Shown here: positions 8,154 through 64,000 of the stretch, piece by piece
How positions within the stretch are numbered: the stretch's first letter is position 1
Layout of the letters: every line of letters begins with the position of its first letter
NCBI GenBank assembly: GCA_015065165.1
Contig: SVQU01000009.1
Coordinates: 66-64,065 of the forward strand
DNA length: 64,000 nucleotides
Direction of reading: 5' to 3'
Origin: Oscillospiraceae bacterium
Lineage (GTDB): Bacteria; Bacillota; Clostridia; Oscillospirales; CAG-382
Notes under the pieces: generated by a model
Database searches by the model: none
Told to the model about the DNA's origin: nothing
What the model saw: only the letters and a program-made list of their open reading frames with translations
Position numbers and translations under genes: made by a program

Positions 8154-8226
8154 GAATTTTAATTGTATTTGCTTTATTGTATTTTTTGTTGATGCTTTTA
8201 ACGGTATCAGCGATTAGATTGGAGTA

Positions 8227-12293: not shown

Positions 12294-12312
12294 TTTTATT
12301 GGTTTTGGTTTT

Positions 12313-12448: not shown

Positions 12449-12460
12449 GTCATTTATTTT

Positions 12461-27666: not shown

Positions 27667-27713
27667 AGTAAAACTCCTTAGTGGTTATTAAAAGCAAATT
27701 TATGTATTTTGGT

Positions 27714-27904
27714 ATTTTTCGGCGACCTGTGATTTACCCCACAAAATTTCATTTTGCGGGGGCCCCGTCGCGTCGAAAAATACACCTTAGAGTGCTGAGG
27801 ATTCGGACAACGAGCGTTAGCGAGGCGCACGAATCCTGCGCGAGCGAACGGCACTCACAAAAGACAATCAAAAACAAGTGTTTTTGATTGAGAGCGTAAG
27901 CGAC
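27714..27904 (+). repeat. structured interspersed repeat, copy A (family 'S')
   Basis: H0 arms ATTTTTCGGCGAC/GTCGCGTCGAAAAAT enclose a CCCCACAAAAT..ATTTTGCGGGG module. Then follow ACACCTTAGAG, P1 (27790-27795/27851-27856), P2 (27798-27805/27830-27837), GCGCGAGCGAACGG, H4 (27865-27890) and tail AGAGCGTAAGCGAC. The tail ends at 27904, directly against the argS stop codon (27905-27907, opposite strand). Confidence 0.7.
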
Positions 27905-29599
27905 TTAAATTTCCTCTGTTCTTCTCATACCAAGCAAATCAAGGCATCTGCCCAAAATGTTGCGGGTTGCGGAGGTAAGAGCAAGACGGAACTGTTCGGT
28001 TTCACCGTCCGAGCCGAGAATTCTGCAATTGTGATAGAACTGGTTATAAAGTGTACAAACACCAAGAGCAAAACGGGAAATATGGCTGGGCTCGTAATCA
28101 TTTGCGGCACGCTCTACAACGTTTTCAAATTCGCAAAGCTTACGGATAAGCTCGGTTTCTTCACCAACGGGGGTGTAGGATTTCCAATCGCCCTCCATAT
28201 TGCCGCGGCGCAAAACGCTGGCGGCACGTGCATAGGTATATTGAACGTAAGGACCTGTGTTGCCCTCGAAGGAAAGTGCGCTTTCCCAGGTGAAGTTGGT
28301 ATCCTTAATACGGCTGTTGGAAAGTGCACCGAAGATAACCGCGCCCAAGCCTACCGCCTCGGCGATATCCTTGTTGTCCTCTCCTGCCTTCTTTTCGTCG
28401 ATAATAGCCAATGCCTTTGCAACGGCTTCGTCGAAAACGTCGTTAAGCAAAATAATGTTGCCTGTACGGGATGCAAGCTTTTCGCCCCCGAAGCTCATTG
28501 TGCCATAGGGGATGTGAACCAAATCCTTTGCCCATTCCTTGCCCATAAGCTCGGTAACCTTAAACCATTGGGCAAAGTGCAAGGACTGACCTGCGCTGGT
28601 AACGTAAGCGCAAATATCAAAATTATAGGTGTTGTATCTATAGTTTGCCGCTGCAATATCGCGGGTGGGATAAAGGGTACTGCCGTCGCGCTTAAGGATA
28701 AGTGCGGGAGGCATATTATATTCCGAAAGGTCAACTATAGATGCGCCGTCGTCGATTTTAAGAAGCTCTTTTTCTCTAAGCTCATCTACAATAGCGGGCA
28801 TTTTGTCGGTATAAAGGCTTTCGCCGTCCCAAACGTCAAAATCAATGCCCAAGCGTTTGTAGGTCTGGGTATATTCGCGAAGGGAAATATCCTTAAACAA
28901 TTGCCATATTTCAAGATATTCCTTGTTGCCGTTTTCAAGTTCGCGGAAGGCGGCACGGGCTTGGTCGTTAAGAGAGGGGTCTTTTTCCGCCTCCTTGCCG
29001 AACATAACGTAAATACGTTCAAGCTCCTTAATGCCCTCTTTTTCAAGCTGTTCCTTGCTTGACCACTTTTTAAAAGCCACAATCTGCTTGCCGTTTTGTG
29101 TGCCCCAGTCGCCAAGATAGTTTAAAGCTACGGTTTTATAACCGCAGAATTTATAAATGTTTCTAACGGCGTTACCGATAACGGTTGTGCCCAAATGTCC
29201 CAAATGAAAACGCTTTGCGATGTTGGGGGAGGAGAAGTCCAAAACAATGGTTTTGTTTTCTCCCATTTTGGTAAGGTTGGGATATTCGTCGGAAAGCAAG
29301 CCTTCCAAATCCGAAATATATTTGTCCCCCGCAAAGAAGAAGTTAAGATAAGGGCCTGTGGGTGCAATTTTTTCTATACCGTCAACAGCGTTGAATCTTT
29401 CTGCAAGCTCGGCAGAAATCATCGCGGGATTACCCCTTAAAAGCTTTGAAAGCCTAAAGCAGGGCAATGCAAGGTCGCCAAGCTTGGAATCTGCAGGGGT
29501 TTCAAGAAAATCCGCCACCTCGTCTGCCGAAAGGGATGCGCCCTTGGAAGCAACATATTCCGCAACGGTTTCGCATATAATTGTTTTTATATCCGCCAT
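27905..29599 (-). CDS. argS: arginine--tRNA ligase
   Basis: The track ORF is 568 aa. I prefer the second ATG ('MADIKTII...', 29599) because GGAGA lies 5 nt upstream. Class I motifs 'SSPNIAKRFHLGHLGTT' (HIGH-like) and a DALR anticodon-binding C-terminus. Confidence 0.93.
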   Translation of the reverse strand: MADIKTIICETVAEYVASKGASLSADEVADFLETPADSKLGDLALPCFRLSKLLRGNPAMISAELAERFNAVDGIEKIAPTGPYLNFFFAGDKYISDLEGLLSDEYPNLTKMGENKTIVLDFSSPNIAKRFHLGHLGTTVIGNAVRNIYKFCGYKTVALNYLGDWGTQNGKQIVAFKKWSSKEQLEKEGIKELERIYVMFGKEAEKDPSLNDQARAAFRELENGNKEYLEIWQLFKDISLREYTQTYKRLGIDFDVWDGESLYTDKMPAIVDELREKELLKIDDGASIVDLSEYNMPPALILKRDGSTLYPTRDIAAANYRYNTYNFDICAYVTSAGQSLHFAQWFKVTELMGKEWAKDLVHIPYGTMSFGGEKLASRTGNIILLNDVFDEAVAKALAIIDEKKAGEDNKDIAEAVGLGAVIFGALSNSRIKDTNFTWESALSFEGNTGPYVQYTYARAASVLRRGNMEGDWKSYTPVGEETELIRKLCEFENVVERAANDYEPSHISRFALGVCTLYNQFYHNCRILGSDGETEQFRLALTSATRNILGRCLDLLGMRRTEEI

Positions 29600-46888: not shown

Positions 46889-46917
46889 TTGACATAAGAA
46901 AATTATTTTTGTATAAT
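46889..46917 (+). promoter_or_regulatory. consensus sigma-A promoter for the 46961 gene
   Basis: TTGACA (46889-46894), 17-nt spacer, TATAAT (46912-46917). Confidence 0.6.
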
Positions 46918-46960
46918 AAATAGGAACGTAAAAAAACGTAAAATAAAAGGAGAATTAACC

Positions 46961-49645: not shown

Positions 49646-49666
49646 AGCAAAATAACGATATGCCCA

Positions 49667-49697
49667 AAAGGACGGAGGCTTTCCCTCTGTCCTTTTT
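49667..49697 (+). terminator. rho-independent terminator
   Basis: AAAAGGACGGAGG-CTTTC-CCTCTGTCCTTTTT. Confidence 0.75.
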
Positions 49698-49728
49698 CTG
49701 TTTTGAAAATATTGTAAGGAAACCTAAT

Positions 49729-50118
49729 GTCATCCCAAGCGAAGGTGATTTTTAATCACCGTAGCCGAAGGATATAGGCAACCTTTTTCGGTCGGTCGAG
49801 GACGCCCGACCCTACAAATAATGTTAAAACGGGCGATTCGTGAATCGCCCCTACCATCTTGAGAGTGGGCAATCTTATTGCCGTAGCCGAAGGATATAGA
49901 ATGATGAAGAATGAAAAATGAAAAATGAAAAATGAAGAATGAAGAATGAAAAATTGAGGTAGGCTTTCGGATTTTTTCCTCCGAAAGCCATTTTTATTTT
50001 AAAATATTGTAGGGGTGGGCGTCCTCGACCACCCGCAGGATAACGTTACGTATAAACCCACGTTAAAGCTTGTATCCTTCGATTGCGTCGGTTGCGCCGC
50101 CTCGGCTTGGGATGACAG
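49729..50118. repeat. dense cluster of REP-like palindromes and short repeats
   Basis: GTCATCCCAAGCGAAGG..CCGTAGCCGAAGGATATAG occurs at 49729-49777, partially at 49867-49900 and inverted at 50071-50118. GGTCGGTCGAGGACGCCCGACCCTACA is at 49790-49816. GGGCGATTCGTGAATCGCCCCTAC is at 49831-49854. TGTAGGGGTGGGCGTCCTCGACCACCC is at 50008-50034. Confidence 0.7.
49899..49954. repeat. 7-bp tandem repeat A(G/A)AATGA, ~8 units
   Basis: AGAATGA TGA AGAATGA AAAATGA AAAATGA AAAATGA AGAATGA AGAATGA AAAATTG, read directly from the sequence. Confidence 0.8.
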
Positions 50119-50238
50119 CGCAAAAAAATGCTCCCGCCGTTTCTGCTGTTTTCGGTGAGGAACGAGCCAAAAATATATCGAAAACATATTAAACATATAA
50201 ATAAATTGTAAACTTCGATTTAACTCCGCTATCCGCCA

Positions 50239-50267
50239 TTGACAAACACGTAACACCGTGATATCAT
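50239..50267 (+). promoter_or_regulatory. sigma-A promoter candidate
   Basis: TTGACA (50239-50244), 17-nt spacer, TATCAT (50262-50267). The same TTGACA-17-TATCAT layout occurs at 61018-61046. Confidence 0.55.
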
Positions 50268-50302
50268 CAAGTTAACATTATAACATAAAAGGAGATACAA
50301 AT

Positions 50303-53300
50303 ATGAAAAGATTAATTTCGTTTCTTGTTGTTGCCGCCATGCTTTTATCGCTTTTTGCGGTTGCACCTGCCGCGGCAGATTATGACACAACGGGAAATAT
50401 CGCGCTTGGCTGTTCCTATGAGGGAACGGGCTATGCGGTTTCCGGCGGTATGTGGCCTGCGTCCTACAACGCAAACCTTACCGACGGTTTGACAGCCACA
50501 GACCTTTACGGCACAGACAATTGGTTTGGTTTTTCCAGCAGCGAAAGCGACAACGGTATTAACGCTCCCGACAAAATCGGCGTCGTTATAATCGACCTTG
50601 GCGAAATTAAAAGCTTCAAATCCATCAAGGTTAACACCTTTGTTGGAAACGAATCGGGCATTACCAGACCTGAAAAAATCACTGCTTACGTTTCTGACAC
50701 CCGCGACGGTGTTTTCGAAACCCTTGGAGATTTCCAATACGGCGAAGTTGTAAATAATATCGCTTGGGCTATCCTTAACGCCGAAGCTTCCGGCAGATAT
50801 GTAGCTATTGAGGTTGAACTCGGCAGCGGCGTGTTCGCTTTCATCAACGAAGTTGCTGTTTACGAAGAAGAATCTGACGGCATCATTGAAGACCAGCCCG
50901 ACGTTCTTCCCGAATACAACGAAGCTTACGCTTATGACACCACCGGCAACGTGGCTCTTAACAAGACCTACGATGCTAAGGGTTACAAGCGCGGCGGCGA
51001 ATGGCCCGTTAACTACGTAGCTCCCCTTACCGACGGTCAGGCTTGCAACGAAGTTAAGTTCGACAACAACTGGTTTGCTTTCTGCACCAGCGCAGGCGAC
51101 TACGGTCCTAACACTAACAATGGTATTGGTACCGTTACCGTTGACCTCGAAAAGGTTCACAATATCGATTCTATCAAGGTTAACACCGTAGTTGGTAAAA
51201 ACGTTGAGGGTTCAGGCATAAACGGCCCCTATAAGATTTCCGCTTACATCAGCGATACTGCTGACGGAGATTTCACCTATCTCGGCGACCTTACCATCGG
51301 CGAAGGCGTAAATGGCGTTGCTTGGGCAGAGCTTTCTACCGAGGCTACGGGCAGATTTGTGAAAATCGAAATAATTCTTGACGGTTTTTTCGCTTTCATC
51401 AACGAAATCGCTGTTTACAGCGAAGATGCGAGCCAAGACGGTCCCTCCAAGCCTACCAACGACCAGGTAGATCCCGATCCTAACCCCGACCCCGAACCTC
51501 CTTTTGATGAGCTTCTCGGCGAAGAAAACGAAAACCCTGCGTTTACAATGGATATCACCGCGCCCGAAAGCTATGCCGCAGGCGAGGAGGTTGTTGTAAC
51601 CGTTACGGTTAATAACGCGAATACCGCCCTTCAATACGTAAATGGACATCTCTATTTCGACACCGACGTTCTTGGCTTTGACTTTGGATTGACAGAAGAC
51701 AGAGAACTAAGCGGTTCTCTTGTTGAATTTGCGGAATGGGAGGATTTCTGCGCCCTCAAAAAAGATGAAAACGGCAATTGGTACGTACGCATTCAAGCGC
51801 TCACCGCCGGTGATTACGATAATGATGGTAACTATATCTACACTGACAACCTAAACGACGGAGATATTACGTTTAACATCAAGTTCGTCGCCCTTGAGGA
51901 TGCAACCGATGACACTGTTGTATATATTCCTCACAACACCGTTATTGGTGCTTACGTAGACCCCCAAACCTACGAATCCTTCGACTACGTTGGTAACGGT
52001 TCCTTGGCGGAAATCAGTAAGGGCGAATCCAACGGTGCATACAACGGCCCGTTGACCTTTGAACTTGCGGAAAACGGCGAATATTACATCGTTTCGTATT
52101 GTGATGAAGAAGCAGTTTCGGTTGTTATTCCCGAAACCTACAACGGATTGCCCGTTAAGGAAATCGGCAATGATGCGTTCTGTTACTGCACTGAACTTAC
52201 CGACGTTACAATCCCCGATACCGTAACAAAAATAGACGATTATGCATTTGCTTTTTGCTTTAATTTGAATAACGTGATGTTCTCCGAAAACCTAACTTCT
52301 ATCGGTGAATATGCATTTGAAAGCTGCGACCTTTACAGCATATATATTCCCGATTCGGTTACTGAAATCGGATATCTTGCTTTTGACGGCAACTCGTATC
52401 TTACAAGTATAACCGTCGAAGACGGAAACCCCGTATATCATTCCGCGGGTAACTGTCTTATCGAAACCGCAACCGGAGCTCTTATTAAAGGCTGTAACAA
52501 GAGCGTTATTCCTGACGACGGAAGCGTTAAGACTATCTTCAATCATGCTTTCGCTTATTGCTACGGCTTGTCAAATATCAATATCCCCGATTCTGTAAAG
52601 TATATTCATAGCGAGGCGTTTATAAGCAGCGGGCTTGAAAAAATAACCATACCCGATTCGGTAGAGTTTATCGGCGATTTCGCTTTTTACGCTTGCGAAA
52701 ACCTTACCAAGGTAGAAATTTCCGCTTCGGTTGAAGTTATCGGAGTATACGCGTTTGTTTGCGGCGAAAGCCTTGAAAGTATAACCGTTGAAGACGGAAA
52801 TGAATTTTATCATTCTGCGGGAAACTGTCTTATTGAAACCGCAACAAAAACTCTGATTGCAGGCTGTAAAAACAGCGTTATCCCCACGGACGGAAGCGTT
52901 GAAATTATTGGCGATTATGCATTTTTCGGCGCTTGCCATTTAACCAGCATTACAATTCCCGAAACCATTATCTCTATTGGCAAATATACTTTCTATGATT
53001 GTTTCGGCTTGACGAGCATAATAATTCCCGATTCCGTGGAATTTATCGGTGAATACGCTTTTGCTTGGTGCTATAGCCTGACCGATATTTATTGCGAAGC
53101 CGAATCTCAACCCGAGGGTTGGGCAGTTAACGGTTACGATGATTATTTGGAAGAATGGCATGGTAGTTGGAATGACGATTGCGATGCAACCGTTCATTGG
53201 GGCTGGGTTATTGAAAACGACAACTCCTCTGACGTAGATTCTTCCGACATCGTAGATTCCTCCGACATTGAAGATTCCTCCGACATTGAAGATTCCTCCG

Positions 53301-53542
53301 ACGAATCCGACAACTCCGACATAACCGAACCCGAACCCGAAAAGGTTAACAAGGGCGACATTGACGGAGACAGCGATATCGATTCTATGGACTATCTCTA
53401 TCTTAAGAGAGTATACTTCAGCCAGTATAAGGTTGACGACATTACAATAGGCGATATCGATAACGACGGAGTAATCACCAGTATGGACTACCTCTATCTT
53501 AAGAGAGTATACTTCAGCCAATATATAATTAAGGAAAACTAA
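50303..53542 (+). CDS. secreted discoidin x2 - cohesin-like - BspA-type LRR - dockerin protein
   Basis: 1079-aa ORF with a signal peptide. It has two ~165-aa discoidin/F5-8-type-C-like modules ('YDTTGN(I/V)AL...NLTDG...DNWF(G/A)F...SIKVNT(F/V)VG...FAFINE(V/I)AVY'). A cohesin-like beta-sandwich segment 'NPAFTMDITAPESYAAGEEVVVTVTVNN...LYFDTDVLGFDF...ITFNIKFVALEDA' lies at about 51535-52020. LRR_5/BspA-type repeats ('IPD(S/T)V..IG.YAF..C..L') lie at about 52050-53100. An Asp/Ser linker follows, then dockerin repeats 'GDIDGDSDIDSMDYLYLKRVYFSQY' / 'GDIDNDGVITSMDYLYLKRVYFSQY'. Confidence 0.7.
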   Translation: MKRLISFLVVAAMLLSLFAVAPAAADYDTTGNIALGCSYEGTGYAVSGGMWPASYNANLTDGLTATDLYGTDNWFGFSSSESDNGINAPDKIGVVIIDLGEIKSFKSIKVNTFVGNESGITRPEKITAYVSDTRDGVFETLGDFQYGEVVNNIAWAILNAEASGRYVAIEVELGSGVFAFINEVAVYEEESDGIIEDQPDVLPEYNEAYAYDTTGNVALNKTYDAKGYKRGGEWPVNYVAPLTDGQACNEVKFDNNWFAFCTSAGDYGPNTNNGIGTVTVDLEKVHNIDSIKVNTVVGKNVEGSGINGPYKISAYISDTADGDFTYLGDLTIGEGVNGVAWAELSTEATGRFVKIEIILDGFFAFINEIAVYSEDASQDGPSKPTNDQVDPDPNPDPEPPFDELLGEENENPAFTMDITAPESYAAGEEVVVTVTVNNANTALQYVNGHLYFDTDVLGFDFGLTEDRELSGSLVEFAEWEDFCALKKDENGNWYVRIQALTAGDYDNDGNYIYTDNLNDGDITFNIKFVALEDATDDTVVYIPHNTVIGAYVDPQTYESFDYVGNGSLAEISKGESNGAYNGPLTFELAENGEYYIVSYCDEEAVSVVIPETYNGLPVKEIGNDAFCYCTELTDVTIPDTVTKIDDYAFAFCFNLNNVMFSENLTSIGEYAFESCDLYSIYIPDSVTEIGYLAFDGNSYLTSITVEDGNPVYHSAGNCLIETATGALIKGCNKSVIPDDGSVKTIFNHAFAYCYGLSNINIPDSVKYIHSEAFISSGLEKITIPDSVEFIGDFAFYACENLTKVEISASVEVIGVYAFVCGESLESITVEDGNEFYHSAGNCLIETATKTLIAGCKNSVIPTDGSVEIIGDYAFFGACHLTSITIPETIISIGKYTFYDCFGLTSIIIPDSVEFIGEYAFAWCYSLTDIYCEAESQPEGWAVNGYDDYLEEWHGSWNDDCDATVHWGWVIENDNSSDVDSSDIVDSSDIEDSSDIEDSSDESDNSDITEPEPEKVNKGDIDGDSDIDSMDYLYLKRVYFSQYKVDDITIGDIDNDGVITSMDYLYLKRVYFSQYIIKEN

Positions 53543-53686: not shown

Positions 53687-56038
53687 ATGAAAAAATCCAT
53701 CAGATTGCTTTCGGTTTTGTTGGCTGCCGTTATGATTACCGCCGTAATACCCTTCGGCGCAATGGCAACCACCACCGCTTTGAAAAACAAAACAGTTCTT
53801 GCCTTTGGCGATAGCCTTACGGCATTGGGCAACCCCACCTACGTAGGATACCTTTCGGATTTGTTGGGTATCAACGTTATTAACGCGGGTGTCGGCGGTA
53901 ATATGACCGCCCACGGTAAAGCGCGTTTCCAAGCCGACGTTCTCGATAAGAATCCCGACGTGGTTCTTATGTGCTTCGGTATGAACGACCAAGCCTGCAG
54001 CCTTCCTTCGGGCTATTGCTGGTCCTCTCCCGAGGTTTACCGTGCGGATATGACCTATTTCATCACCGAGCTTCAAAAGACCGGTTGCGACGTAATCCTT
54101 ATCACTCCCAACCCTGTTTGTGATGAAACCGGTTATTACGTTGCTCCCGAAGACTATACCTATAACTATCCCGGTTCGTTGGATAAGTTTGTAAAGGTTA
54201 TGCGCGAGCTTGCCCTTGAATTCGATTGCACTCTCATTGATATGCACCAAGAATTTATGACGGTTAAGGCAAGTAATATTGCTACCTATAAGAGCTATTA
54301 CGCCCCCAACGACGGTATTCACCAAAGCCAGCTTGGCAGACAGTTCTGGGCAGAAAAGGTTAACGCTCATCTTAACGCTGTTTATGATAACGTAAACAAA
54401 AAGACCATAACCGTTAACTGCGTTGATAAAAACAATAACGTTATTAAAACCTATAGCTATGTTGGCGCAAACGGTGCAAACGTTGTAATTGCGCCCCCCG
54501 CTATTCCCGCCTTCTCTACCGATAGTACGGCTGTGTCGGCTAAATATGGTACAGACAGCACCGTTACCTTCACTTTCGAGGCTAAAATCACTCCTTTGTT
54601 AGAGGCTGTTGAAAATATCGACGAATCCAAATACAGCGCAACCGCACTTTCTCTCATTCGCAAGGAATATAACACCGCGAAGAGCCTTCTTGCCGCTGAA
54701 AATATCGATTTTGAAGCGTTGGAAAAATGCGCTCAGGTTCTTGAATATTACCTTTCGGTAAACGGCGACGGTACCCTTGTTATCTCCTTGGGTAAGAGCT
54801 ATACCAGACCTGAACCCAACTATTATAAATGGGACAGCGCAACCGGCGGCCCCAGCACCGAGCTTAACGAGATGTATTCCGACGACTTTATTCGTCTTAC
54901 CGACGGTAAGAAGGGTATAGTTCCTGCCAATACAAGCGCATATTCCGCATGGCAGAGCAACGCCGATATCGTTGTGGATCTTGGCGAGGAAACTGCTTCC
55001 AACGTTTACCGCGCTTATTTCGCTTCCGGAATGTGGGGCGTTGCCGCACCTGCCGATATGAAGATTGCTTATTCCAACGATAAGACCAATTGGACTTATA
55101 TCGAAAAGGCATTTGTTAAGACCGATGTTGTTTCGGGCGGCGCCGACGCGTGGAGCTCTACCGAATATTCGGTTACCGCAGATTCCGAAATCACTGCAAG
55201 ATATATCAAGTTCGAAATCACCAAAACAGGTTCTTTTGTATGGATGGACGAGGTTGAGGTTGCGGTTAAGGGCAACGTTGAAGAAAAGTTTAACCTTGCT
55301 TACAACAAAACCTATGAAAAATCGCCTTTGTTCAGACAAAGCAATATAACTTGGGATTGGGACGAAACCTTCCCCGAGGCATATCCCGACGAGGGCGGAA
55401 TAACCCTTACCGACGGCAAGACCAATTCCATTAACGACCTTGGCGACGGCGCTTGGGTTGGCTTTAACTCCAAGACACCTATTCTCGAAACCAACTATAA
55501 CTACATCCGTGTTGACCTTGGCGACGTTTACGGCTTGACACAGCTTGACCTCCACGTGGGCAGCAACGGTCTTGGTTACGGTATTACCGCGCCCAACGTT
55601 GAATTCTTCGTTTCCGAGGACGGCGAGACCTACACCTCTGTGGGAACTGCCAACGGCGCAAACGGCGGCGCATATACCGAGCTTCTTTCGGTTGAATGTG
55701 AGGTTAACGCCCGTTACGTAGAAGCTCGTATTACCAGCATAGGCTGGGCGTTCGTTTCTGAAATTTACGCTTATGGCGGAGATTTGTTTGACGATAAAGA
55801 GCCTACTCCCGACCCCGACCCCGATCCCGATCCCGATCCCGATCCCGTTGTTATGAAGGGCGATATTAACGGCAACGAGGAAATCGATGCGGTTGACTAT
55901 GCAATGCTTAAACGCGCATATTATGGTATTTACAGCGTGGATGTGAAGGTTGGCGATATTAACGGCAATGAAGAAATCGATTCTGTAGACTACTCGATGC
56001 TTAAACGCGCATATTACGGTATCTATCAAATTCAGTAA
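53687..56038 (+). CDS. secreted SGNH/GDSL hydrolase with two discoidin-like modules and dockerin
   Basis: 783-aa ORF with a signal peptide. SGNH blocks 'VLAFGDSLT' (I), 'NAGVGGN' (II), 'MCFGMNDQ' (III) and 'NDGIHQS' (V). Discoidin-like modules ('ARYIKFEITK..WMDEVEV', 'ARYVEARITS..FVSEIYAY'). (PD)n linker. Dockerin repeats 'GDINGNEEID(A/S)VDY(A/S)MLKRAYYGIY'. Confidence 0.8.
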   Translation: MKKSIRLLSVLLAAVMITAVIPFGAMATTTALKNKTVLAFGDSLTALGNPTYVGYLSDLLGINVINAGVGGNMTAHGKARFQADVLDKNPDVVLMCFGMNDQACSLPSGYCWSSPEVYRADMTYFITELQKTGCDVILITPNPVCDETGYYVAPEDYTYNYPGSLDKFVKVMRELALEFDCTLIDMHQEFMTVKASNIATYKSYYAPNDGIHQSQLGRQFWAEKVNAHLNAVYDNVNKKTITVNCVDKNNNVIKTYSYVGANGANVVIAPPAIPAFSTDSTAVSAKYGTDSTVTFTFEAKITPLLEAVENIDESKYSATALSLIRKEYNTAKSLLAAENIDFEALEKCAQVLEYYLSVNGDGTLVISLGKSYTRPEPNYYKWDSATGGPSTELNEMYSDDFIRLTDGKKGIVPANTSAYSAWQSNADIVVDLGEETASNVYRAYFASGMWGVAAPADMKIAYSNDKTNWTYIEKAFVKTDVVSGGADAWSSTEYSVTADSEITARYIKFEITKTGSFVWMDEVEVAVKGNVEEKFNLAYNKTYEKSPLFRQSNITWDWDETFPEAYPDEGGITLTDGKTNSINDLGDGAWVGFNSKTPILETNYNYIRVDLGDVYGLTQLDLHVGSNGLGYGITAPNVEFFVSEDGETYTSVGTANGANGGAYTELLSVECEVNARYVEARITSIGWAFVSEIYAYGGDLFDDKEPTPDPDPDPDPDPDPVVMKGDINGNEEIDAVDYAMLKRAYYGIYSVDVKVGDINGNEEIDSVDYSMLKRAYYGIYQIQ

Positions 56039-56043
56039 AAAAC

Positions 56044-56231
56044 ATATTTTCCAAGGACAGGCGCCTTGGAAAATATACCTATGACGTTCGCGAGCTGTAA
56101 AGGGGGACCCTGAAAATCGGAAGATTTTTAGGGCATTACAGCGAGGTGCGAACGCACGAACGTCAAAAGGAAAAACGTAGTTTTTCGTCAAATCAATCAA
56201 AATGCTCGCATTTTGATTGAGAGCGTAGCGA
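56044..56231 (+). repeat. structured interspersed repeat, copy C (family 'S')
   Basis: H0 ATATTTTCCAAGG-ACAGGCG-CCTTGGAAAATAT (56044-56076), then ATACCTATG. P1 is 56083-56090/56157-56164. GCTGTAA/TTACAGC encloses CCCTGAAAAT..ATTTTTAGGG (56108-56133). H4 is 56194-56219 and the tail AGAGCGTAGCGA ends at 56231. Confidence 0.7.
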
Positions 56232-56290
56232 TAAACGCGCATATTACGGTATCTATCAAATTCAGTAAAAAACATATTTTCCAAGGACAG
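56232..56290 (+). pseudogene. orphan duplicate of the last 11 codons + stop + 3' flank of the 53687-56038 CDS
   Basis: The 59 bp at 56232-56290 are identical, base for base, to 56002-56060 ('TAAACGCGCATATTACGGTATCTATCAAATTCAGTAAAAAACATATTTTCCAAGGACAG'). Confidence 0.9.
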
Positions 56291-56317
56291 AGGCTAAACC
56301 CTCTGTCCTTTTGTTTT
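56283..56317 (+). terminator. rho-independent terminator (probably the original terminator of the SGNH gene)
   Basis: AAGGACAGAGG-CTAAAC-CCTCTGTCCTT followed by TTGTTTT. Confidence 0.7.
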
Positions 56318-56448
56318 GATACCGTTTGATTAAAGCCGATTTTGTGATATGTAAAAATACAGGACAGAACGTTTGGTTTTTGGGGTATAGCACAATTTTT
56401 TGGTGTGTTAATTGTATAAAGTGCCAATGCGAAAATGTCAAAAATCCA

Positions 56449-56518: not shown

Positions 56519-59500
56519 ATGAAACGTACATTAAGCTTTATCGTTACGTTGGCGATGTTGCTTTCACTGTTCACCGTTTTTGCGGTTACACCCGCTTCTG
56601 CGGCAACAGTTATCGGCAATAATTCGCCCGCTATCCGTGCAAACGTTGGCGAGACAATCACTCTTTCCAACTATTCGGTTACCTTCGATGGCGATACTAC
56701 CGCTACCTCCAACGTTACTTGGAAGAACGGCAGCAGCACCATCACCACCTTTAAGCCTACCGCTAAAGGCGTAACCACTCTTACCGCTACCAGCGGCAGC
56801 AAAACCAAAAACATTTACGTTGTTGCAAAGAATTCTTCCGATACCGAATATGTTCTTTATGAAGCAACAATGTCTAACTTCAGCTCTGTTTCTGCTCTTA
56901 CAAGCGCAGGTTGGACCTTTACCAACTCCGCCAGAGCTTCCAAGGGCAGCGACGGCGCGTTGGTTCTCGGCGTTACCGGCAAATGGGATGCTACCAGCGC
57001 ATATCTTCCTTCCTGGTTGGGTGATTTCGGTAACTATAAGTTTTCCGCGAACGTAAAGTTCAGCGCCTTTGCCGAAAGCGATAAATCCCGTTGGTTCTCG
57101 CTTATGACACGTACGGAAAACCGTACCTGCACCGCCCACTATACTCACGCGGCTTTCCGTGGCAACAATACCGCCTCTAACGGTATCGAGTTTGCTGAAA
57201 GATACGCTACTGATTCCGGAAGCGATTGGAACGTTGCTCTTAAAACCCCCGGTACTTATACCGACCTTACCGATGCTTACCGCGATTTCAGCATTCTCTC
57301 TGTAGATAACACCTTCCGTGTGGATATCGCAGGCAAGCAGATGATTTACGTTGCTCCCTCCTCCTACCTCTCTTTGTCTAAAAAGCAGGTTTACAAGGGA
57401 CATCTCGGTTTCCAGGCTTCGGGCTGTACCATCGCAATAAAGAGCGTTAAGATCACTCTTGAGGATACCGTTCCCGAAGAAATTATCGATACAAAACTTA
57501 TTTATAACAGCTATCACGATGCGGATAACCTCGTTAACCCCATCGCTAATATTCAGAGAGTTTCCAGCGTTACCGCGGCAAACCTCGATAAGCTTTCGGT
57601 TGCATATATCGACCTTACCACCGGTGTAAATGCTCAGACCGCATTTAAAACCTGTATAGACAACAAGGTTGTACCTACCTTCTATGCAACCACCACCGCT
57701 CATGCAGATGCGATTATTGCGGCTTCTACCGCGTTGGGCTCTACCGACGCTACCGTTGTTTCCAACAACAAAACCGTTCTTAACCGTATCAGAGTTCACT
57801 CTACCGCTTATCCTATCCGTACAGGTCTTGTTGTGGATATTTCCACCCAGATGGCAGACGGCACCATGACCGATTACGAAGCCGACGAAATCCGTCGCGA
57901 CGTTCGTGCAATTCCCGCAACCTTCATTCTTATCGAAAGCAAATATGCCACCAAGCAGGCGGTTGCCGAGCTTCAGGAAATGGCTCTTGCGGTTTGGGTA
58001 AACGTTACTTCTACCCCCAACACCGATGCATTTAACATCGAAGCTATGAAGGCTATCACCTCCGGCGCAAACGGTCTTGTTTCCAACAGCGCGGCAGGCG
58101 TTTCTTCTCTTATTAAAACCCACATTCAGGCAAGAGCATTCACCCGTACACCTATCACCATCGGTCATAGAGGTAACCCCGGTGTTGCTGCCGAAAACAC
58201 TATCGAAAGCTTCCAGGCTGCTTATGAAAACGGCGGCGACGTTTTCGAAATCGACGTTGAATGTACCAAGGACGGCGTTATCGTTATTCTCCATGACGGT
58301 ACTCTTACCCGTACTACAACCTATACAGGCTCTACCTCTATCAGAAATATGACATGGGCGGAGGCTAAGAAATATCACGTTCTTGACCTTAACGGTAACT
58401 CCACCGGCAAGCCTATCCCCACCTTGAAAGAGGTTCTCGACTGGGCAAAGGGCAAGGATATTAAGATTTTCGTTGAATTTAAGGATAATTCCACCACCTG
58501 CGTAAACGGCACTATGGCTGATATCGTAGAACGCGGTATGACACAGCAGGTTGATATTATCTCCTTTAATACCACCGCACTTAAGCTTGCAAGAACTGCA
58601 GTTCCCGGTATCTCCACAGGTTATCTTAACGGTAACGATATTACCGGTTCTACCTATTCTATGGCTCTTAAGCTCTTCGAAGGCAGAATCGAACCCGCAC
58701 AGCGCGAATGGTCCACCGTTAACTGCGGCAGCTATAACAACCAGGTTACTAACCTTGCGGTTCAGGTTGCTACCGACCGCGGTATGACTATGTGGCCCTG
58801 GACCTATGGCTACAGCAACACCTCTGCTGCATTCTTCGACTGTCCCGACGGTATCACCACCGACAATATGGAAGTTATGAAGGATATGGTTAAGACCGTT
58901 CATGCAAAGAACTTTGTAATGCTTCCCGGTCAGACCTACGGCGGCGGCGCGCTTACCTCCGAAACCTACGGTAACACTCTTACCAGCGTTAGCGCAAACA
59001 ATACAATCGTTTCGGTTGTTGCAGGCGACAGCGTTAAGGTTGAAAACGGCAAGCTTGTTGCTGTTAAAGAAGGTATCTCCACCGTTGTTATGGCGGTTAA
59101 ATCCTGGACCTACCTCGGTAAAGAATATATCGTATACAGCCAGCCCGTTCAGGTAAGAGTAGGCACAGGCGACCCTGCGGTTCTCGAGCCTCTCGTTGAA
59201 ATGGCAAAATCGGCTACCATCAATTCTCTTTCCGAATCTGACCTCGCAACTCTCCGTGAATATTGCGACAAGGCTGTTGCACTTATCAACAGCTCTAACC
59301 CCAAGGAAGCCGAAGTTAAGGCAACCGCAGAAGCATTGAACAATATCATTGCTAAGTTCATCGTTGAAAAATATATCGCTCCTGCTCCCAACTATTATAA
59401 GTGGGACAGCGCAACAGGCGGCCCCAGCACCGAGCTTAACGAAACCTATGTCGACGACGGCGTTCGTCTTGTAGACGGTAAGAAGAGCCATGTTGCAGGT

Positions 59501-60460
59501 AATACCAATGCATATTCCGCATGGCAGAAGACCTCCGACGGCAAGATTGAAATCATTCTCGATTGCAGCAACCCTGCCCAGAGAGATACCTTCAAGGCAT
59601 ATTTCGCCTCTAACAGCATTTGGGGTGTTAAGGCGCCTGCAAATATGGAGGTTTCCTATTCTACCGATAACAAAACCTTTACACAGTTGGGCGGCGCTAC
59701 TCTTACCAAGCGTCAAATTCCCGACGTGGGCGAATTGAGCGACAACGTTTGGAGCCGTTGGGAATACACCGTAAAAGCTCCTTCGGTTGTTACCGCAAGA
59801 TATTATAAGTTCACCATCTATTTCGAGGGCAGCTTCATTTGGATTGATGAAATCGAAGCCGCTAACGAAAGCAGCGATCTTATTTATATTAATAAGGTTA
59901 ACAACAGAATTAATGCAGGCGAAGCGGGTATTTATACCTCCTCCTTCGGCGAATTGAACAAGCAAACCGCAAACAACATTTGGACAGTGAATATCACTGC
60001 AAAATGGGATGCTTCCAAGGATGCGTACGTGGTTAGCAACGTAGCCTTCGGCGACGGCACCGACAAGCCCGTAACTATTGCTTCGGATGAAATTTATATC
60101 GCTGTTCACGAATGGGAATTGAACACTCTTGATGAAATGCCCGTTGTCGGCAGTGCTCATAACTTGAATCTTGCAAAGGTTGCACAGGTTGGCGACGTGG
60201 TTGAATTCTACGGTATCGATACCGATACTTGGGAGTTCGGCCCTGCACCCAGCATTAAGTTTGTAAGCGAATCCAACAAGGGCGACCTCAACGACAACGG
60301 CGAAATCGATGCTGTTGACTACTCCTTGCTGAAGCGTGCATACTTTGGTATCTTTGCCAGTAATAGCAGTGTTTCTGATATTAATGGCAACGGTGAAGTG
60401 GATGCGGTAGACTACTCCTTGCTTAAACGTGCATACTTCGGTATTTACAGCCTTGCATAA
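56519..60460 (+). CDS. secreted multidomain glycerophosphodiester phosphodiesterase (GDPD) with C-terminal dockerin (paralog 2)
   Basis: 1313-aa ORF with the same architecture as 12461-16363; the N-terminal ~130 aa are nearly identical by eye. Canonical GDPD core 'GHRGNPGVAAENTIESFQAAYENGGDVFEIDVECTKDGVIVILHDGTLTRTT'. Discoidin-like module ('ARYYKFTIYF..WIDEIEA'). Dockerin repeats 'GDLNDNGEIDAVDYSLLKRAYFGIF' / 'DINGNGEVDAVDYSLLKRAYFGIY'. Confidence 0.88.
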   Translation: MKRTLSFIVTLAMLLSLFTVFAVTPASAATVIGNNSPAIRANVGETITLSNYSVTFDGDTTATSNVTWKNGSSTITTFKPTAKGVTTLTATSGSKTKNIYVVAKNSSDTEYVLYEATMSNFSSVSALTSAGWTFTNSARASKGSDGALVLGVTGKWDATSAYLPSWLGDFGNYKFSANVKFSAFAESDKSRWFSLMTRTENRTCTAHYTHAAFRGNNTASNGIEFAERYATDSGSDWNVALKTPGTYTDLTDAYRDFSILSVDNTFRVDIAGKQMIYVAPSSYLSLSKKQVYKGHLGFQASGCTIAIKSVKITLEDTVPEEIIDTKLIYNSYHDADNLVNPIANIQRVSSVTAANLDKLSVAYIDLTTGVNAQTAFKTCIDNKVVPTFYATTTAHADAIIAASTALGSTDATVVSNNKTVLNRIRVHSTAYPIRTGLVVDISTQMADGTMTDYEADEIRRDVRAIPATFILIESKYATKQAVAELQEMALAVWVNVTSTPNTDAFNIEAMKAITSGANGLVSNSAAGVSSLIKTHIQARAFTRTPITIGHRGNPGVAAENTIESFQAAYENGGDVFEIDVECTKDGVIVILHDGTLTRTTTYTGSTSIRNMTWAEAKKYHVLDLNGNSTGKPIPTLKEVLDWAKGKDIKIFVEFKDNSTTCVNGTMADIVERGMTQQVDIISFNTTALKLARTAVPGISTGYLNGNDITGSTYSMALKLFEGRIEPAQREWSTVNCGSYNNQVTNLAVQVATDRGMTMWPWTYGYSNTSAAFFDCPDGITTDNMEVMKDMVKTVHAKNFVMLPGQTYGGGALTSETYGNTLTSVSANNTIVSVVAGDSVKVENGKLVAVKEGISTVVMAVKSWTYLGKEYIVYSQPVQVRVGTGDPAVLEPLVEMAKSATINSLSESDLATLREYCDKAVALINSSNPKEAEVKATAEALNNIIAKFIVEKYIAPAPNYYKWDSATGGPSTELNETYVDDGVRLVDGKKSHVAGNTNAYSAWQKTSDGKIEIILDCSNPAQRDTFKAYFASNSIWGVKAPANMEVSYSTDNKTFTQLGGATLTKRQIPDVGELSDNVWSRWEYTVKAPSVVTARYYKFTIYFEGSFIWIDEIEAANESSDLIYINKVNNRINAGEAGIYTSSFGELNKQTANNIWTVNITAKWDASKDAYVVSNVAFGDGTDKPVTIASDEIYIAVHEWELNTLDEMPVVGSAHNLNLAKVAQVGDVVEFYGIDTDTWEFGPAPSIKFVSESNKGDLNDNGEIDAVDYSLLKRAYFGIFASNSSVSDINGNGEVDAVDYSLLKRAYFGIYSLA

Positions 60461-60493
60461 TAGAAAACCGTAAAAGTATAAAATAATATAACC

Positions 60494-60719
60494 ATAAAAG
60501 CCGAGGACACGTGATCCTCCCCGCAAAATGTAATTTTGCGGGGACCCCATTACTCGGCTTTTATACCTTAGAGGTTCGCAAGTTTGGACAAGATGCAAAG
60601 CATCGCGCACAAACTTGGCGCGAGCAACGGACCCTAAAAACGCCCGCGTTTTAAAGGGGTAGTGTCCGAACCTCAAAAAACGCACGAAAATAGGTGTTTT
60701 CGTGCGAGAGCGAAGCGAC
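60494..60719 (+). repeat. structured interspersed repeat, copy B (family 'S')
   Basis: H0 arms ATAAAAGCCGAG/CTCGGCTTTTAT (60494-60564) enclose ACACGTGATCC plus a CCCCGCAAAAT..ATTTTGCGGGG module. Then follow ACCTTAGAG, P1 (60571-60578/60667-60674), P2 (60579-60586/60610-60617), GCGCGAGCAACGG, hairpin ACCCTAAAAAC..GTTTTAAAGGGG, H4 (60681-60706) and tail AGAGCGAAGCGAC ending at 60719. Confidence 0.7.
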
Positions 60720-60722
60720 AAC

Positions 60723-60829
60723 CGTGCATACTTCGGTATCTACAGCCTTGCATAAAAGAAAATCGTAAAAGCATAAAACAAAATAAGTATATAACGATAA
60801 AAGCCGAGGCGTATGTCCTCGGCTTTTAT
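60723..60829 (+). pseudogene. orphan diverged duplicate of the last 10 codons + stop + terminator of the 56519-60460 CDS
   Basis: CGTGCATACTTCGGTATCTACAGCCTTGCATAA (60723-60755) differs at 1 of 33 positions from 60428-60460. The following 3' flank and terminator arms (AAAAGCCGAGG/CCTCGGCTTTT) are also duplicated, with a few substitutions and indels. Confidence 0.8.
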
Positions 60830-61017
60830 AGTTTTACTGACAGAACAAATGTTTCTGCGTCGTGCGCCATATTTTGCGCTTCGATTTTTTCTTGCTGTCT
60901 ATTTCTTGTGGTTTCGAGCAAACAGAGGTGTCCGAATGGGGCGATGGAAAAGCAGAAAACCAAGTATTTTGGCGGTTTTTTTGTACACATTTTGTCTATT
61001 AAAACCAATAAGTAATA

Positions 61018-61138: not shown

Positions 61139-64000
61139 ATGAAGAAGATTATTTCTATTCTTCTTGTTATAGCAATGCTTTCTACCATGTTCACAGCATT
61201 CGTATTTCCCGTTGCTGCGGCAGGTCAGTCTCTTGCTATTAACGCGATCAACCCTTCTGCGATGGCTCCCGGTATTTCTGCAATTTATACGCAGGCATAC
61301 ACCATCGACGGTTATCAGGAAAACGTGGCGTTTTCTCCCGTTTCCGGTAACACCTTTAAAGTAACCGCAAAATCCGGCTACAGCTGGGACGAAACTCAGG
61401 GCGATATTCTCTCCCAAGCACTCGCAATTCCTGCGGGCGGTTTCGTTTGGTCTGTACAGTGGTCCAGCGATTACTCTCTTGACGATGCAATTAAGTTTGC
61501 AAAGTCTTTGGTTGTTGGCGATACCTTTGAGGTTAGCGGCCTCGATATCGCAAACGGCACTTACACCGACGTAGTTCTTACTGCTGTTGCTGCTGACGGC
61601 GGTTATGACACCACCAACAACGTAGCACGCGGCAAAACATATGATGCTGTAGGTTACGGCGGATACACCGCAAACCTTACCGACGGTGTAGCTGCAAGCG
61701 AGCTTACTTATGACAACAATTGGTTTGCTTTCTATAACAACCCCGGCAACGAAGGCATAAACGCTCCCGACGGCGTTGGTACTGTTACCATCGACTTGGG
61801 CGCAGATTATGACCTCAGCGCTGTTAAGGTTAACACCTTTGTTGGCAGCGAATCCGGTATTGTTAAGCCCACCAAGATGGAAGCGTTCGTTGCATCCGCA
61901 ACCGGCGATTTCGTATCTGTTGGTGAATTGGCTTATACCGACAACGGCACCAACGTTCAGTGGGGTGTTGTAAACACCACCGCAAAGAGCGTTCGTTACG
62001 TTAAGGTTGCAGTTACTCTCAACGGCACCTTCGCGTTCATTAACGAAATTGCTGTTATCGGCGAAAAAGCTGCTAACGATACTTATGACACCACCGGCAA
62101 CGTGGCTCTCGGAGCAACTTACGATGCTAAGGGTTATAAGTCCAGCGGCGAATGGCCTTCTGAATATAACGCAAACCTTACCGACGGTAAGGCTGCACAG
62201 GCTCTTTCCTATGATAACAACTGGTTCGGCTTCTGCAAAACCGATGCAGGCGACAACGGTCTTAACGCTCCCGATGGCGTTGGTACCGTAACTCTCGACC
62301 TCGGCAAGAAGTGCGACATCAACTCTATTAAGGTTAACACCTTTGTAGGTAACGAATCCGGTATTGTTGCTCCCGAAAAGATGACCGCTTATATCAGCGA
62401 CACCGCTGACGGCGAGTTCACCTCTCTCGGCGACCTCACTATCGGTACCGGCGCAAATAACGTTGCTTGGGCAACTCTTAACAAGACCGCTTCCGGTCGT
62501 TTCGTTAAGATCGAAGTTACTGTAACCGGCAGCTTCGCGTTCATCAACGAAATTGCAGTTTACGGCGAAGAATCCAAGGAAGTTTCTCCCGAGGATCTTA
62601 TGGGTACTCCCCATGCTAACCCCAACTTCACTATGGACATCACTGCTCCTTCCACCTACAAAGCAGGTGAAGAAGTTGTAGTTACCGTAACCGTTAACAA
62701 CGTTAACGCTTCTACCGGTCTTCAGCACGTACACGGTAAGCTCTATTTCGACCACAACCTCTTCGGCTTCGATGTAGCGCTTAAGGATAAGCAGGAACTT
62801 AAGAATACCTTCCAGGGTTATGAAGAATGGGAAGATATGACCAGACTTCGTACCGATGGTTCCATCTGGTGGGTAGAACTTGACGCTACCACCGCCGGTT
62901 ATGAAGATCCCGATAACCCCGGTTCTTACCTTATCTCTGATGTAACCGAGGACGGTCTTCTCGTATTTAACGTTAAGTTCATCGCTCTTGCCGATGCAAG
63001 CGACGATACTATCGTTTATATCTCCAACGTTACTACCGACGGCAAGAATAACGTATACGGCGACCACTATGCGATGGAAGAACCTTACACTCACACTCCT
63101 TACGTAGGTAACGGTTCTTACGCTACTATCGCATTCAATGCAGATAGCGGCAACGAATCCTCCGAAGTAGTATCTTCCGAGGTTGAATCCTCCGAAGTGG
63201 TTTCTTCTGAAATCGAATCCTCCGAAGTAGTATCTTCCGAAGTAGTATCTTCCGAAGTTGAATCTTCTGAAGTAGTATCTTCCGAAGTAGTATCTTCCGA
63301 GGTTGAATCCTCTGAAGTAGTATCCTCCGAGGTTGAATCCTCTGAAGTAGTTTCTTCCGAAGTTGAATCCTCCGAAGAATCCTCTACTCCCGAAGTTTCC
63401 GAACCCGAAATCACCGACGACAGACCTTTCATCCCCTCTACCCCTGCAGCAACTCCCGGTTACGATACCACCGGTAACGTAGCACTCGGTAAGTCTTATA
63501 ACGAACAGGGCTTTGGTGGCTACACTGCAGGTCTTACCGACGGTTTGGCTGTTCAGGAACTTACCTATGATAACAACTGGTTTGCATTCTGCACCACTGC
63601 AAACGAAAACGGTTATACCAACGCTCCCAACGGTGTAGGCTCTGTTGTTGTTGACCTTGCTAAGGTTTACGACATCAGCTCTATCAAGGTTAACGCTATC
63701 GTTGGCGAAAACGTTGACAGCTCCGGCATTTACGGTCCCGCAAAGATTACTGCTTATATCAGCAACACTCTTAACGGCACCTATAAGCTTCTTGGCGACC
63801 TCACCATCGGTGCAGGCACCAATAACGTAACCTGGGCAACTCTTGACAAGACCGCTTCCGGTCAGTTCGTTAAGCTCGAAGTTGCTCTTAACGGCACCTT
63901 CGCATTTATCAACGAAATCGTTGTAATCGGCGAAGAACCCGCAAGCGTCGATGACCTTATGGGTACACCTGTTGCTAACCCCAACTTCACCATGGACATC
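61139..64000 (+). CDS. scaffoldin-like secreted protein with repeated discoidin + cohesin-like modules (3' end outside window)
   Basis: This ORF is not in the supplied track because it has no stop in the window. My hand translation from ATG 61139 (AAAGGAA RBS) stays open to 64000 (>950 codons). It has signal peptide 'MKKIISILLVIAMLSTMFTAFVFPVAAA'. After a ~130-aa N-terminal region come discoidin-like modules starting about 61606, 62083 and 63463. Cohesin-like segments 'NPNFTMDITAPSTYKAGEEVVVTVTVNNVNA...LYFDHNLFGFDV' start about 62620 and again at 63980. A (SSEVV/SSEVE)n linker is present. It is paralogous to 50303-53542. Confidence 0.8.
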   Translation, partial: MKKIISILLVIAMLSTMFTAFVFPVAAAGQSLAINAINPSAMAPGISAIYTQAYTIDGYQENVAFSPVSGNTFKVTAKSGYSWDETQGDILSQALAIPAGGFVWSVQWSSDYSLDDAIKFAKSLVVGDTFEVSGLDIANGTYTDVVLTAVAADGGYDTTNNVARGKTYDAVGYGGYTANLTDGVAASELTYDNNWFAFYNNPGNEGINAPDGVGTVTIDLGADYDLSAVKVNTFVGSESGIVKPTKMEAFVASATGDFVSVGELAYTDNGTNVQWGVVNTTAKSVRYVKVAVTLNGTFAFINEIAVIGEKAANDTYDTTGNVALGATYDAKGYKSSGEWPSEYNANLTDGKAAQALSYDNNWFGFCKTDAGDNGLNAPDGVGTVTLDLGKKCDINSIKVNTFVGNESGIVAPEKMTAYISDTADGEFTSLGDLTIGTGANNVAWATLNKTASGRFVKIEVTVTGSFAFINEIAVYGEESKEVSPEDLMGTPHANPNFTMDITAPSTYKAGEEVVVTVTVNNVNASTGLQHVHGKLYFDHNLFGFDVALKDKQELKNTFQGYEEWEDMTRLRTDGSIWWVELDATTAGYEDPDNPGSYLISDVTEDGLLVFNVKFIALADASDDTIVYISNVTTDGKNNVYGDHYAMEEPYTHTPYVGNGSYATIAFNADSGNESSEVVSSEVESSEVVSSEIESSEVVSSEVVSSEVESSEVVSSEVVSSEVESSEVVSSEVESSEVVSSEVESSEESSTPEVSEPEITDDRPFIPSTPAATPGYDTTGNVALGKSYNEQGFGGYTAGLTDGLAVQELTYDNNWFAFCTTANENGYTNAPNGVGSVVVDLAKVYDISSIKVNAIVGENVDSSGIYGPAKITAYISNTLNGTYKLLGDLTIGAGTNNVTWATLDKTASGQFVKLEVALNGTFAFINEIVVIGEEPASVDDLMGTPVANPNFTMDI
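63155..63390 (+). repeat. in-frame 15-bp tandem repeat encoding (SSEVV/SSEVE)n linker, ~15 units
   Basis: TCCTCCGAAGTAGTA / TCTTCCGAGGTTGAA units read directly from the sequence. The 104-aa minus-strand ORF 63118-63432 ('TSEDSTSEDTT...') is its mirror image. Confidence 0.85.

Follow-up and report, generated by a model that had tools for sequence, protein, structure and literature searches.

A 64,000-nt stretch of contig SVQU01000009.1 from an Oscillospiraceae bacterium (GCA_015065165.1), hereafter the window, carries a gene encoding a GDPD and dockerin protein whose 3' end is present twice. Behind the gene lie, in order, its functional end (X), an A/T-rich leader, a hairpin (T1), the body of a repeat here called S (copy B), a decaying orphan copy of the gene end (X') and a second, plain hairpin (T2) (Table 1). 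Another copy of the repeat, copy C, sits behind the neighbouring GDSL-lipase/dockerin gene, and the end of that gene is duplicated as well, from the same codons onward. S is an undescribed, lineage-specific, non-coding and strongly structured mosaic intergenic repeat of uncultured rumen and gut Clostridia.

Comparison of the two gene ends at locus B confirmed what an earlier note, made from the sequence alone, had read there. The last 10 codons and the stop codon (60428-60460, CGTGCATACTTCGGTATTTACAGCCTTGCATAA) recur at 60723-60755 with one mismatch in 33, a synonymous T>C change. The 3' untranslated region (UTR) recurs from CGTGC to GCCGAGG, with 6 substitutions in 79 aligned nucleotides and an 8-nt indel between the copies, and the repeat extends to 60829 through both hairpin arms: the left arm ATAAAAGCCGAGG occurs at 60494-60506 and at 60797-60809, and the right arm (C)CTCGGCTTTTAT at 60553-60564 and at 60817-60829. 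The S body lies between the two copies, as the note had stated, and the orphan has no upstream reading frame.

The two hairpins differ in what separates their arms, which is CGTATGT in the downstream hairpin and about 46 nt (60507-60552) in the upstream one. In T1 the left arm is followed by the S-type loop ACACGTG (60507-60513), AT and CCT, a module hairpin (60519-60543), ACCCCATTA and the right arm. The insert of about 47 nt reported in the note is therefore real, but it does not replace the loop as had been proposed, since the S-type loop is kept and extended. In more distant orthologues of the gene, at the related loci L048 and L050, the terminal hairpin is plain (AAAAGCCGAGG-loop-CCTCGGCTTTT), with the same stem and a non-S loop. 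T2 is likewise plain, is the best predicted terminator of the region and is followed by the flank that it has in common with the related locus L047; it is therefore probably the original intrinsic terminator of the gene. T1 shares its stem with the gene's own terminator and is most simply regarded as a chimera of S and this terminator, from which the stem would derive. The leader and the 5' extension of S copy A look alike, which is no more than suggestive of homology since the sequence is A/T-rich.

Relative to the plain L048 and L050 hairpins the module is an addition, which agrees with the note. Its further implication, that this terminator had been hit separately by a module, did not hold, because S copy D shares the cassette. 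The two cassettes, ACACGTG-AT-CCT-CCCCGCAAAATGTAATTTTGCGGGG-ACCCC in B and ACCTGTG-AT-TTA-CCCCACAAAATTTCATTTTGCGGGG-GCCCC at the equivalent position in the T hairpin of D, follow the common pattern loop, AT, 3 nt, CCCC-hairpin-GGGG-R-CCCC. Because D carries the same cassette in the same place, the module in T1 marks an S subfamily.

Table 1. Coordinates of the duplicated gene end at locus B and of the other S copies in the window.
Feature	Position	Strand	Basis or remark
GDPD and dockerin gene, 1313 aa, ending in LLKRAYFGIYSLA and stop	56519-60460	+	Open reading frame (ORF) list; Pfam GDPD and Dockerin_1 in one product
X, upstream functional copy, from the K-R-A-Y codons to the stop plus 7 nt	60425-60467	+	Sequence repeat comparison
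A/T-rich leader CCGTAAAAGTATAAAATAATATAACC, inside the duplicated stretch	60468-60493	+	Side-by-side listing
T1, 5' hairpin of S copy B	60494-60564	+	Fold; module scan
S body of copy B, ACCTTAGAGG ... GAGAGCGAAGCGAC	60565-60719	+	nhmmer; RNAalifold; fold z-score -6.75
X', orphan copy: last 11 codons, stop, 3' UTR/leader (AACCGTGC ... ATATAACG)	60720-60796	+	
T2, plain hairpin ATAAAAGCCGAGG-CGTATGT-CCTCGGCTTTTAT, then T-run	60797-60829	+	Top-scoring terminator prediction on the + strand
13-nt direct repeats CTCGGCTTTTATA	60553-60565 and 60818-60830	+	Bound the 265 nt missing in L047
Copy C locus: X 56002-56060, T hairpin 56044-56076, body 56077-56231, X' 56232-56290, native terminator 56283-56310	56002-56310	+	
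S copy A: leader, T hairpin (8121-8153) and body	7965-8204	-	Between the rny stop codon (7962-7964) and ymdB
S copy D	27712-27904	+	Between yebC and argS; 3' end abuts the argS stop codon (27905-27907)

At copy C the direct repeat is perfect over 59 nt (56002-56060 and 56232-56290). The duplication starts at TAAACGCGC, that of B at AA(A>C)CGTGC, and the two starts fall at the same L-K-R-A-Y position within 1 nt (GCTT/AAACGYGC, the slash marking the boundary), so the coincidence at the K-R-A-Y codons noted earlier is genuine. The segment duplicated at C takes in 17 nt of the S hairpin (the left arm and ACAG), and its right end lies inside the left arm and loop of T, within an 8-nt match (AAGGACAG) to the arm of the native terminator. 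The upstream T hairpin of C lacks a T-run, and the first canonical terminator comes downstream of the orphan; readthrough of S by the dockerin transcript is probable at this locus.

In an exact-repeat scan of the window, B and C were the only long intergenic direct repeats flanking an insert, except for a 19-nt pair at 49759/49881, which speaks against chance. Ten distinct contigs out of the 23 on record were retrieved, from Joint Genome Institute (JGI) and European Nucleotide Archive (ENA) assemblies made with different assemblers, and in every one both spacers are base-identical. An assembly artefact is thereby ruled out, and no empty B or C site was found among these contigs, which carry the exact proteins.

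To delineate the family, B and C were used as nhmmer queries, which returned two further copies in the window, A and D, for a total of four in 64 kb. Copies outside the window, in related uncultured Clostridia, were obtained through pattern scans of genome and metagenome collections, in which the source genome is not included, and through neighbour look-ups. The collection scans gave real copies only in L022 and L024, both from the metagenome-assembled genome (MAG) JAZRTL, and in L042 and L044, both from a metagenome; all other matches were due to chance. Eleven copies bear a body, namely the four of the window and seven in L022, L042, L044, L052 (two; MAG JAZSLN) and L054, while only partial 3' bodies are present in L024 and at a second locus in L022.

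The plan of S consists of an A/T-rich leader, often with ATACAAT, a T hairpin with a 13-bp stem and the 7-nt loop ACAYGYG, and a body that follows directly (TAT/ACCT...). The body measures 107-158 nt, contains two nested helices and a 3' hairpin, and terminates in GAGAGCGWAGCGAY; its 3' end junction is precise in every copy. In copy B it comprises helices P1 and P2, an internal module (60632-60657) and the 3' hairpin (60681-60706). All eight complete cases of a T hairpin with an S-type loop have a body directly behind the hairpin. Additional modules of the form GGGG-T-CCCC-stem-loop-stem-GGGG (30-36 nt) are optional, occur in both orientations and are placed inside S bodies, inside T hairpins or after 3' ends, there as one to three in tandem. 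A module scan found those of the window confined to S copies. Tandem S-S junctions are present in L022 and L042.

The predicted structure is conserved through compensatory change. RNAalifold gave double compensatory changes in 19 of 27 body pairs. In the T hairpin alignment every cell is paired (104/104), 8 of the 13 pairs show double changes, and none of 500 shuffles reached the observed score. Single-sequence fold z-scores range from -5 to -8 on either strand. On the reverse strand the 3' hairpin of S with its T-run resembles a terminator (60706-60681 in copy B), and this opposite-strand end adjoins the stop codons of rny (1 nt away, copy A) and argS (0 nt, copy D). From this placement, S may supply the terminators of these two convergent genes.

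No known family or carrier was recovered for S. Rfam returned no match at the gathering or E-value thresholds, the best sub-threshold matches being terminator-like noise; the only match in the window above the gathering threshold is a tRNA gene (18-89, minus strand). BLAST searches of plasmid and phage collections gave no match to S, and a pattern scan of viral contigs found nothing. A Pfam scan of roughly 33 window ORFs showed housekeeping or dockerin enzymes, with no transposase, reverse transcriptase or integrase among them.

The two duplications differ in age. Copy B is clearly older than copy C, as the note had suggested from the divergence of the duplicated arms, because the copies at C are identical (0/59) and those at B differ by 6/79 and the indel. 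At C, moreover, X and X' both carry two substitutions that are derived by comparison with the L049 orthologue. Furthermore, the B and C events are independent, because the L050 orthologues of both paralogues end in plain terminators without S and because the two S bodies belong to different sub-lineages, distinguished in P2 and the 3' hairpin, with B resembling A and C resembling D. This upholds the view that two different dockerin genes were hit at different times. It could be argued that S and an orphan were placed once behind an ancestral dockerin gene and inherited by both paralogues, with subsequent gene conversion homogenizing X and X'. Such a history would account for the identical K-R-A-Y junction without any targeting, and the two genes are indeed adjacent paralogues in their C-terminal halves (families D2 and D8). 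However, the plain terminators in L050, the different sub-lineages of the two bodies and the unrelated 3' UTRs of the two genes leave it very improbable and close to refuted.

Locus L047 (GCA_052839665.1), which carries an orthologue of the GDPD-dockerin gene (protein 93% identical), gives further evidence on the order of events at B. There, X and T1 with its module are followed directly by the flank found after T2 in the window. What is missing is precisely the 265 nt bounded by the 13-mers CTCGGCTTTTATA (60553 and 60818), a stretch that includes the S body and the orphan together with most of T2. The module is common to L047 and the window T1, which differ at 3 of 71 nt, and T2 lacks it; therefore the T1/T2 split is older than the module, and the arrival of the module is older than the split between window and L047. 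Because the module is shared with T1 and an S-type T is otherwise followed by a body in 8/8 cases, the L047 state is most simply explained by a secondary deletion between the 13-nt repeats. L047 was also considered as a clean pre-insertion empty site, a status that was downgraded because the S-type loop and module it carries argue for secondary loss.

The note had also raised a preference of S for the ends of dockerin genes, and in exclusive form this was not sustained. Dockerin genes precede three of the 11 body-bearing copies (B, C and L054-8531), and an S-type T hairpin truncated where the contig stops lies at a fourth dockerin end (L054-11659). The remaining body-bearing copies follow rny, argS, thiI and other genes, and three of the five complete dockerin 3' ends in the window are free of S. 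There is thus no exclusive preference for dockerin ends. The fifth dockerin gene of the window (GDPD, F5/8 type C and dockerin domains; 12461-16363, minus strand) is without S, and at its end (12300-12460) a small CCGAAAAT...ATTTTCGG hairpin separates two plain terminators. The T-like terminators of dockerin genes resemble the S leader and T in having ATACAAT..., an A-run, a stem and a T-run, a likeness that plausibly explains why S lands at dockerin ends. No conserved target motif was found at the 3' flanks of S: TTTAC, TTAAA, TTTAT, AAACG, AACCG, TATGG and ATACA share only A/T-richness. An apparent likeness of the K-R-A-Y sequence to the 3' flanks of copies A and L052E was judged coincidental, the flank of A being the genuine rny 3' end, conserved in L053.

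Comparison across copies revealed that duplication is not an obligatory part of S insertion, because A, D and the dockerin-end S of L054 lack a coding duplication. The exact-repeat scan found no flanking duplication at A or D. For A an empty site is available in L053, where the rny-ymdB spacer measures 26 nt (TAA/TATAGCG...) against an insert of about 240 nt in the window, and the comparison shows no target duplication of at least 3 nt; there is no such comparator for D. At L054-8531 (8531-8720) the order is stop codon, 7 nt, T, body and a second T-like hairpin, flanked only by a 9-nt repeat (ATAAAAGCC) and without a duplicated coding fragment. This layout may be the precursor of those at B and C. 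The idea that long duplications are general for repeats of this lineage was dropped, because the 25-nt repeat in L052 that had suggested it (7194/7428) is the end of another family. This second family, G (6840-7470 and 11930-12215 in L052), is about 200 nt long, with like sequences at both ends, and its 25-nt terminal repeat, which at first resembled a long target duplication, is part of the element.

These observations are best accommodated by a homology-assisted replicative insertion through the T hairpin, with the anatomy as laid out above, to which a probability of roughly 0.4 is assigned. S would enter through its T hairpin, which would be homologous to the T-like terminators of dockerin genes. 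The route would be replicative recombination, either by a template switch at the hairpin or by integration of a circular or tandem S intermediate, and synthesis would rejoin the chromosome upstream at the K-R-A-Y codons, such that a target of about 80-110 nt is copied twice and the gene stays intact. At locus B the event would predate the split from the L047 lineage, and a later deletion between the 13-nt repeats in that lineage would have taken out the S body together with the orphan and most of T2. We infer both the recombination route and the polarity of the L047 difference from sequence comparison. T is favoured as the crossover region by the S-S tandem junctions in L022 and L042, by the T - body - second T-like hairpin layout of L054, and by the right end of the C duplication, which falls in the T arm and loop at the 8-nt match.

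Several findings weigh against this proposal. By eye, no microhomology was found at B or C when the S 3' end (GCGAY) was compared with the stretch that precedes K-R-A-Y; a return by pure slippage or template switching is therefore not accounted for at the GCTT/AAACG junction. Two independent events within 1 nt suggest an enzyme or a specific signal. Neither a circular nor a tandem X-T-body intermediate was seen, and the sample is small, at 11 body-bearing copies. The divergence between X and X' (7.6%) is lower than the neutral expectation of about 11-15% for an orphan that predates the window/L047 split, given differences of 23.9% at four-fold sites and 15.3% in the downstream spacer; 6 substitutions were observed and about 8.5-12 expected, which is compatible with an old orphan only at the edge of the range or with some gene conversion. 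L047 could alternatively predate the S body, in which case X' and T2 would come from a module-less template. Finally, no clean empty site was found for C, the region downstream of the L049 orthologue being unrelated and synteny broken.

The coincidence of the left boundaries leads to a different proposal, that of true transposition with long staggered cuts, which is the targeted mechanism argued in the note. Here an S-associated nuclease or recombinase encoded elsewhere would cut one strand at K-R-A-Y (GCTT/AAACG) and the other within or close to the terminator hairpin, and gap filling would turn 59 to about 110 nt into a long target-site duplication. The agreement within 1 nt between independent events, the precise joining of the S 3' end in every copy and the junction without microhomology all favour it. 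Set against these are the absence of flanking duplications at A and D (none of at least 3 nt at A relative to the L053 empty site) and of a coding duplication at the L054 dockerin end, the unequal duplicated lengths (59 versus about 80-110 nt), 3' flanks with no common motif beyond A/T-richness, and the lack of a candidate enzyme among the scanned ORFs of the 64 kb. We also know of no bacterial transposon with duplications as long as 59 to about 110 nt. Targeting of this kind is thus possible but not demonstrated by the duplications, and we judge it unlikely. In a related scheme, S would be a non-autonomous mobile element whose partner enzyme reads the T-type terminator hairpin together with the conserved dockerin L-K-R-A-Y coding sequence and, by a replicative route, re-copies the last 11 codons and the terminator so that the host gene stays intact, a 'self-healing' insertion that appears more doubtful still.

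The L054 layout, in turn, opens the way to local rearrangement after insertion. S would first have settled between stop codon and terminator, and the gene end would have been copied later during repair or replication, by ectopic strand invasion via the T-like hairpin with end joining or by a double template switch; the start at K-R-A-Y would then mark a polymerase pause site or be a coincidence. Three observations are in line with this: the T - body - second T-like hairpin precursor layout at the L054 dockerin end, the 17 nt of S hairpin within the duplicated segment of C, by which the template already held S, and the right junction of C in the 8-nt match (AAGGACAG) to the native terminator arm. 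Yet the same unusual two-step outcome would be needed twice with the same left boundary, the junction between the S 3' end and K-R-A-Y is devoid of microhomology, and no intermediate was seen for B or C themselves. On balance this course of events seems rather unlikely, with a case nonetheless to be made for it.

A functional role for the repeat itself was also weighed. The near-duplication of a surface-protein gene's 3' end is superficially like the variable/template pair of a diversity-generating retroelement (DGR), and the guide RNAs of transposon ends combine a structured RNA with a target-identical stretch, much as S precedes a copy of the gene's own 3' end. However, the single coding difference is T>C and not adenine-specific, the repeat spans the stop codon and UTR, no reverse transcriptase or nuclease gene occurs among the scanned window ORFs, Rfam gives no match, and copies A and D have no such repeat. 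Together with an artefact of assembly, contradicted by the identical arrangement in 10/10 contigs, these possibilities are highly improbable and were rejected, as was an integrase attachment-site reading.

Among known systems, S is closest in kind, by analogy, to the repetitive extragenic palindromic (REP) sequences and bacterial interspersed mosaic elements (BIME) or to BOX elements. REP and BIME are mosaic elements of enterobacteria and BOX elements are modular elements of pneumococci. Like them, S is intergenic and non-coding, is built of hairpin units in varied order and orientation, lies in many cases after stop codons or between convergent genes, forms tandem arrays, conserves its structure by compensatory change and is repetitive, with four copies in 64 kb. 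It differs in having no sequence similarity to them and no Rfam family, and in a larger body made up of several helices, its ends being fixed (T hairpin ... GAGAGCGWAGCGAY). No gene for a REP-associated tyrosine transposase (RAYT, a Y1 transposase), the partner of REP, is among the scanned window ORFs. To our knowledge, gene-end duplications of 59 to about 110 nt, as found at two S copies, are not a described feature of REP, BIME or BOX. What is odd about S relative to known mosaic repeats is that two independent duplications are anchored at one and the same codon and leave the gene intact. The stem-loop repeat families of bacterial genomes have been surveyed in general (PMC1590033, PMC2267715).

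Mobile elements offer partial parallels. Copy A is like the non-autonomous derivatives of the insertion sequences IS200/IS605 (palindrome-associated transposable elements) in its subterminal hairpins at both ends, its lack of terminal inverted repeats and the absence of a target duplication; copy D likewise has no flanking duplication, and S insertions lie by A/T-rich sequence near stop codons. No constant 4-5-nt target stands beside one end, and neither TnpA nor TnpB is encoded among the scanned window ORFs. The long duplications of B and C contradict membership in this class, since the IS200/IS605 mechanism does not yield them. The position of the S body directly 3' of a hairpin (TAT/ACCT...) and of the module inside the T hairpin recall group IIC introns and IS1397/ISKpn1, which insert at hairpins, and by this analogy both look like structure-directed insertions. 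Unlike group IIC introns, S has neither ribozyme domains nor an intron-encoded protein (no Rfam match), its body measures only 107-158 nt and its module is a non-coding 30-36 nt. Integrative elements that target gene ends, such as those of tRNA genes, likewise leave the target 3' end intact with a second copy beyond the insert. Their repeat is element-borne and the same everywhere, whereas the repeats at B and C each match their own host gene and are mutually unrelated; moreover, no integrase is among the scanned ORFs, and the insert spans only about 170-230 nt. S is also unlike a classical miniature inverted-repeat transposable element (MITE) derived from DDE transposons, as the ends of copy A, CCGTTAAAAGCAT... 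and ...GCGTAGCGT, delimited against the L053 empty site, are by eye not inverted complements, and there is no short target duplication of fixed length (none of at least 3 nt at A, none at D, 59 nt at C and about 80-110 nt at B).

The surroundings of the two loci show additional variation. Upstream of gene C, strains differ in structure, as seen in L015 (1-5856) compared with L011-L014 (window about 46900-53540): one ENA assembly has genes for a 774-aa GDSL/dockerin protein and a 1095-aa protein where the others encode an 894-aa NAGPA and a 1079-aa LRR/dockerin protein. Gene order in GCA_052839665.1 is unlike that of the window, the orthologue of gene C not being adjacent to gene B and the downstream region being unrelated; a gene-order breakpoint lies at or near S copy C (window 56290-56380 versus L047 7745-7860 and L049 3505-3780). 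The spacer after the NAGPA-dockerin gene (49700-50150) contains other repeat modules, for example GGTCGGTCGAGGACGCCCGACCCTAC, with relatives in L049 and L052, a GAAAAAT/GAAGAAT microsatellite, and a 103-nt piece flanked by the 19-nt direct repeat CCGTAGCCGAAGGATATAG (49759/49881). Beyond locus B, a 15-nt tandem repeat array of at least 13 units (63127-63407) lies inside a large gene that starts at 61140, and a similar low-complexity repeat occurs in L047 at 14390-14625.

Even on the ordinary reading, S adds a structurally conserved repeat family to the genomes of uncultured rumen and gut Clostridia, one that remodels the 3' UTRs and terminators of their cellulosome-type (dockerin) genes. For annotation this calls for caution, as orphan dockerin 3' fragments and chimeric terminators can arise as by-products of repeat insertion. 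If the K-R-A-Y codons are truly recognized, S would represent a novel route by which a small bacterial repeat enters gene ends and spares the gene, and the orphan gene ends would be a datable record of each insertion event. A 'self-healing' insertion, if true, would constitute a bacterial mechanism without a described counterpart, in which a long duplication is anchored at a specific site.

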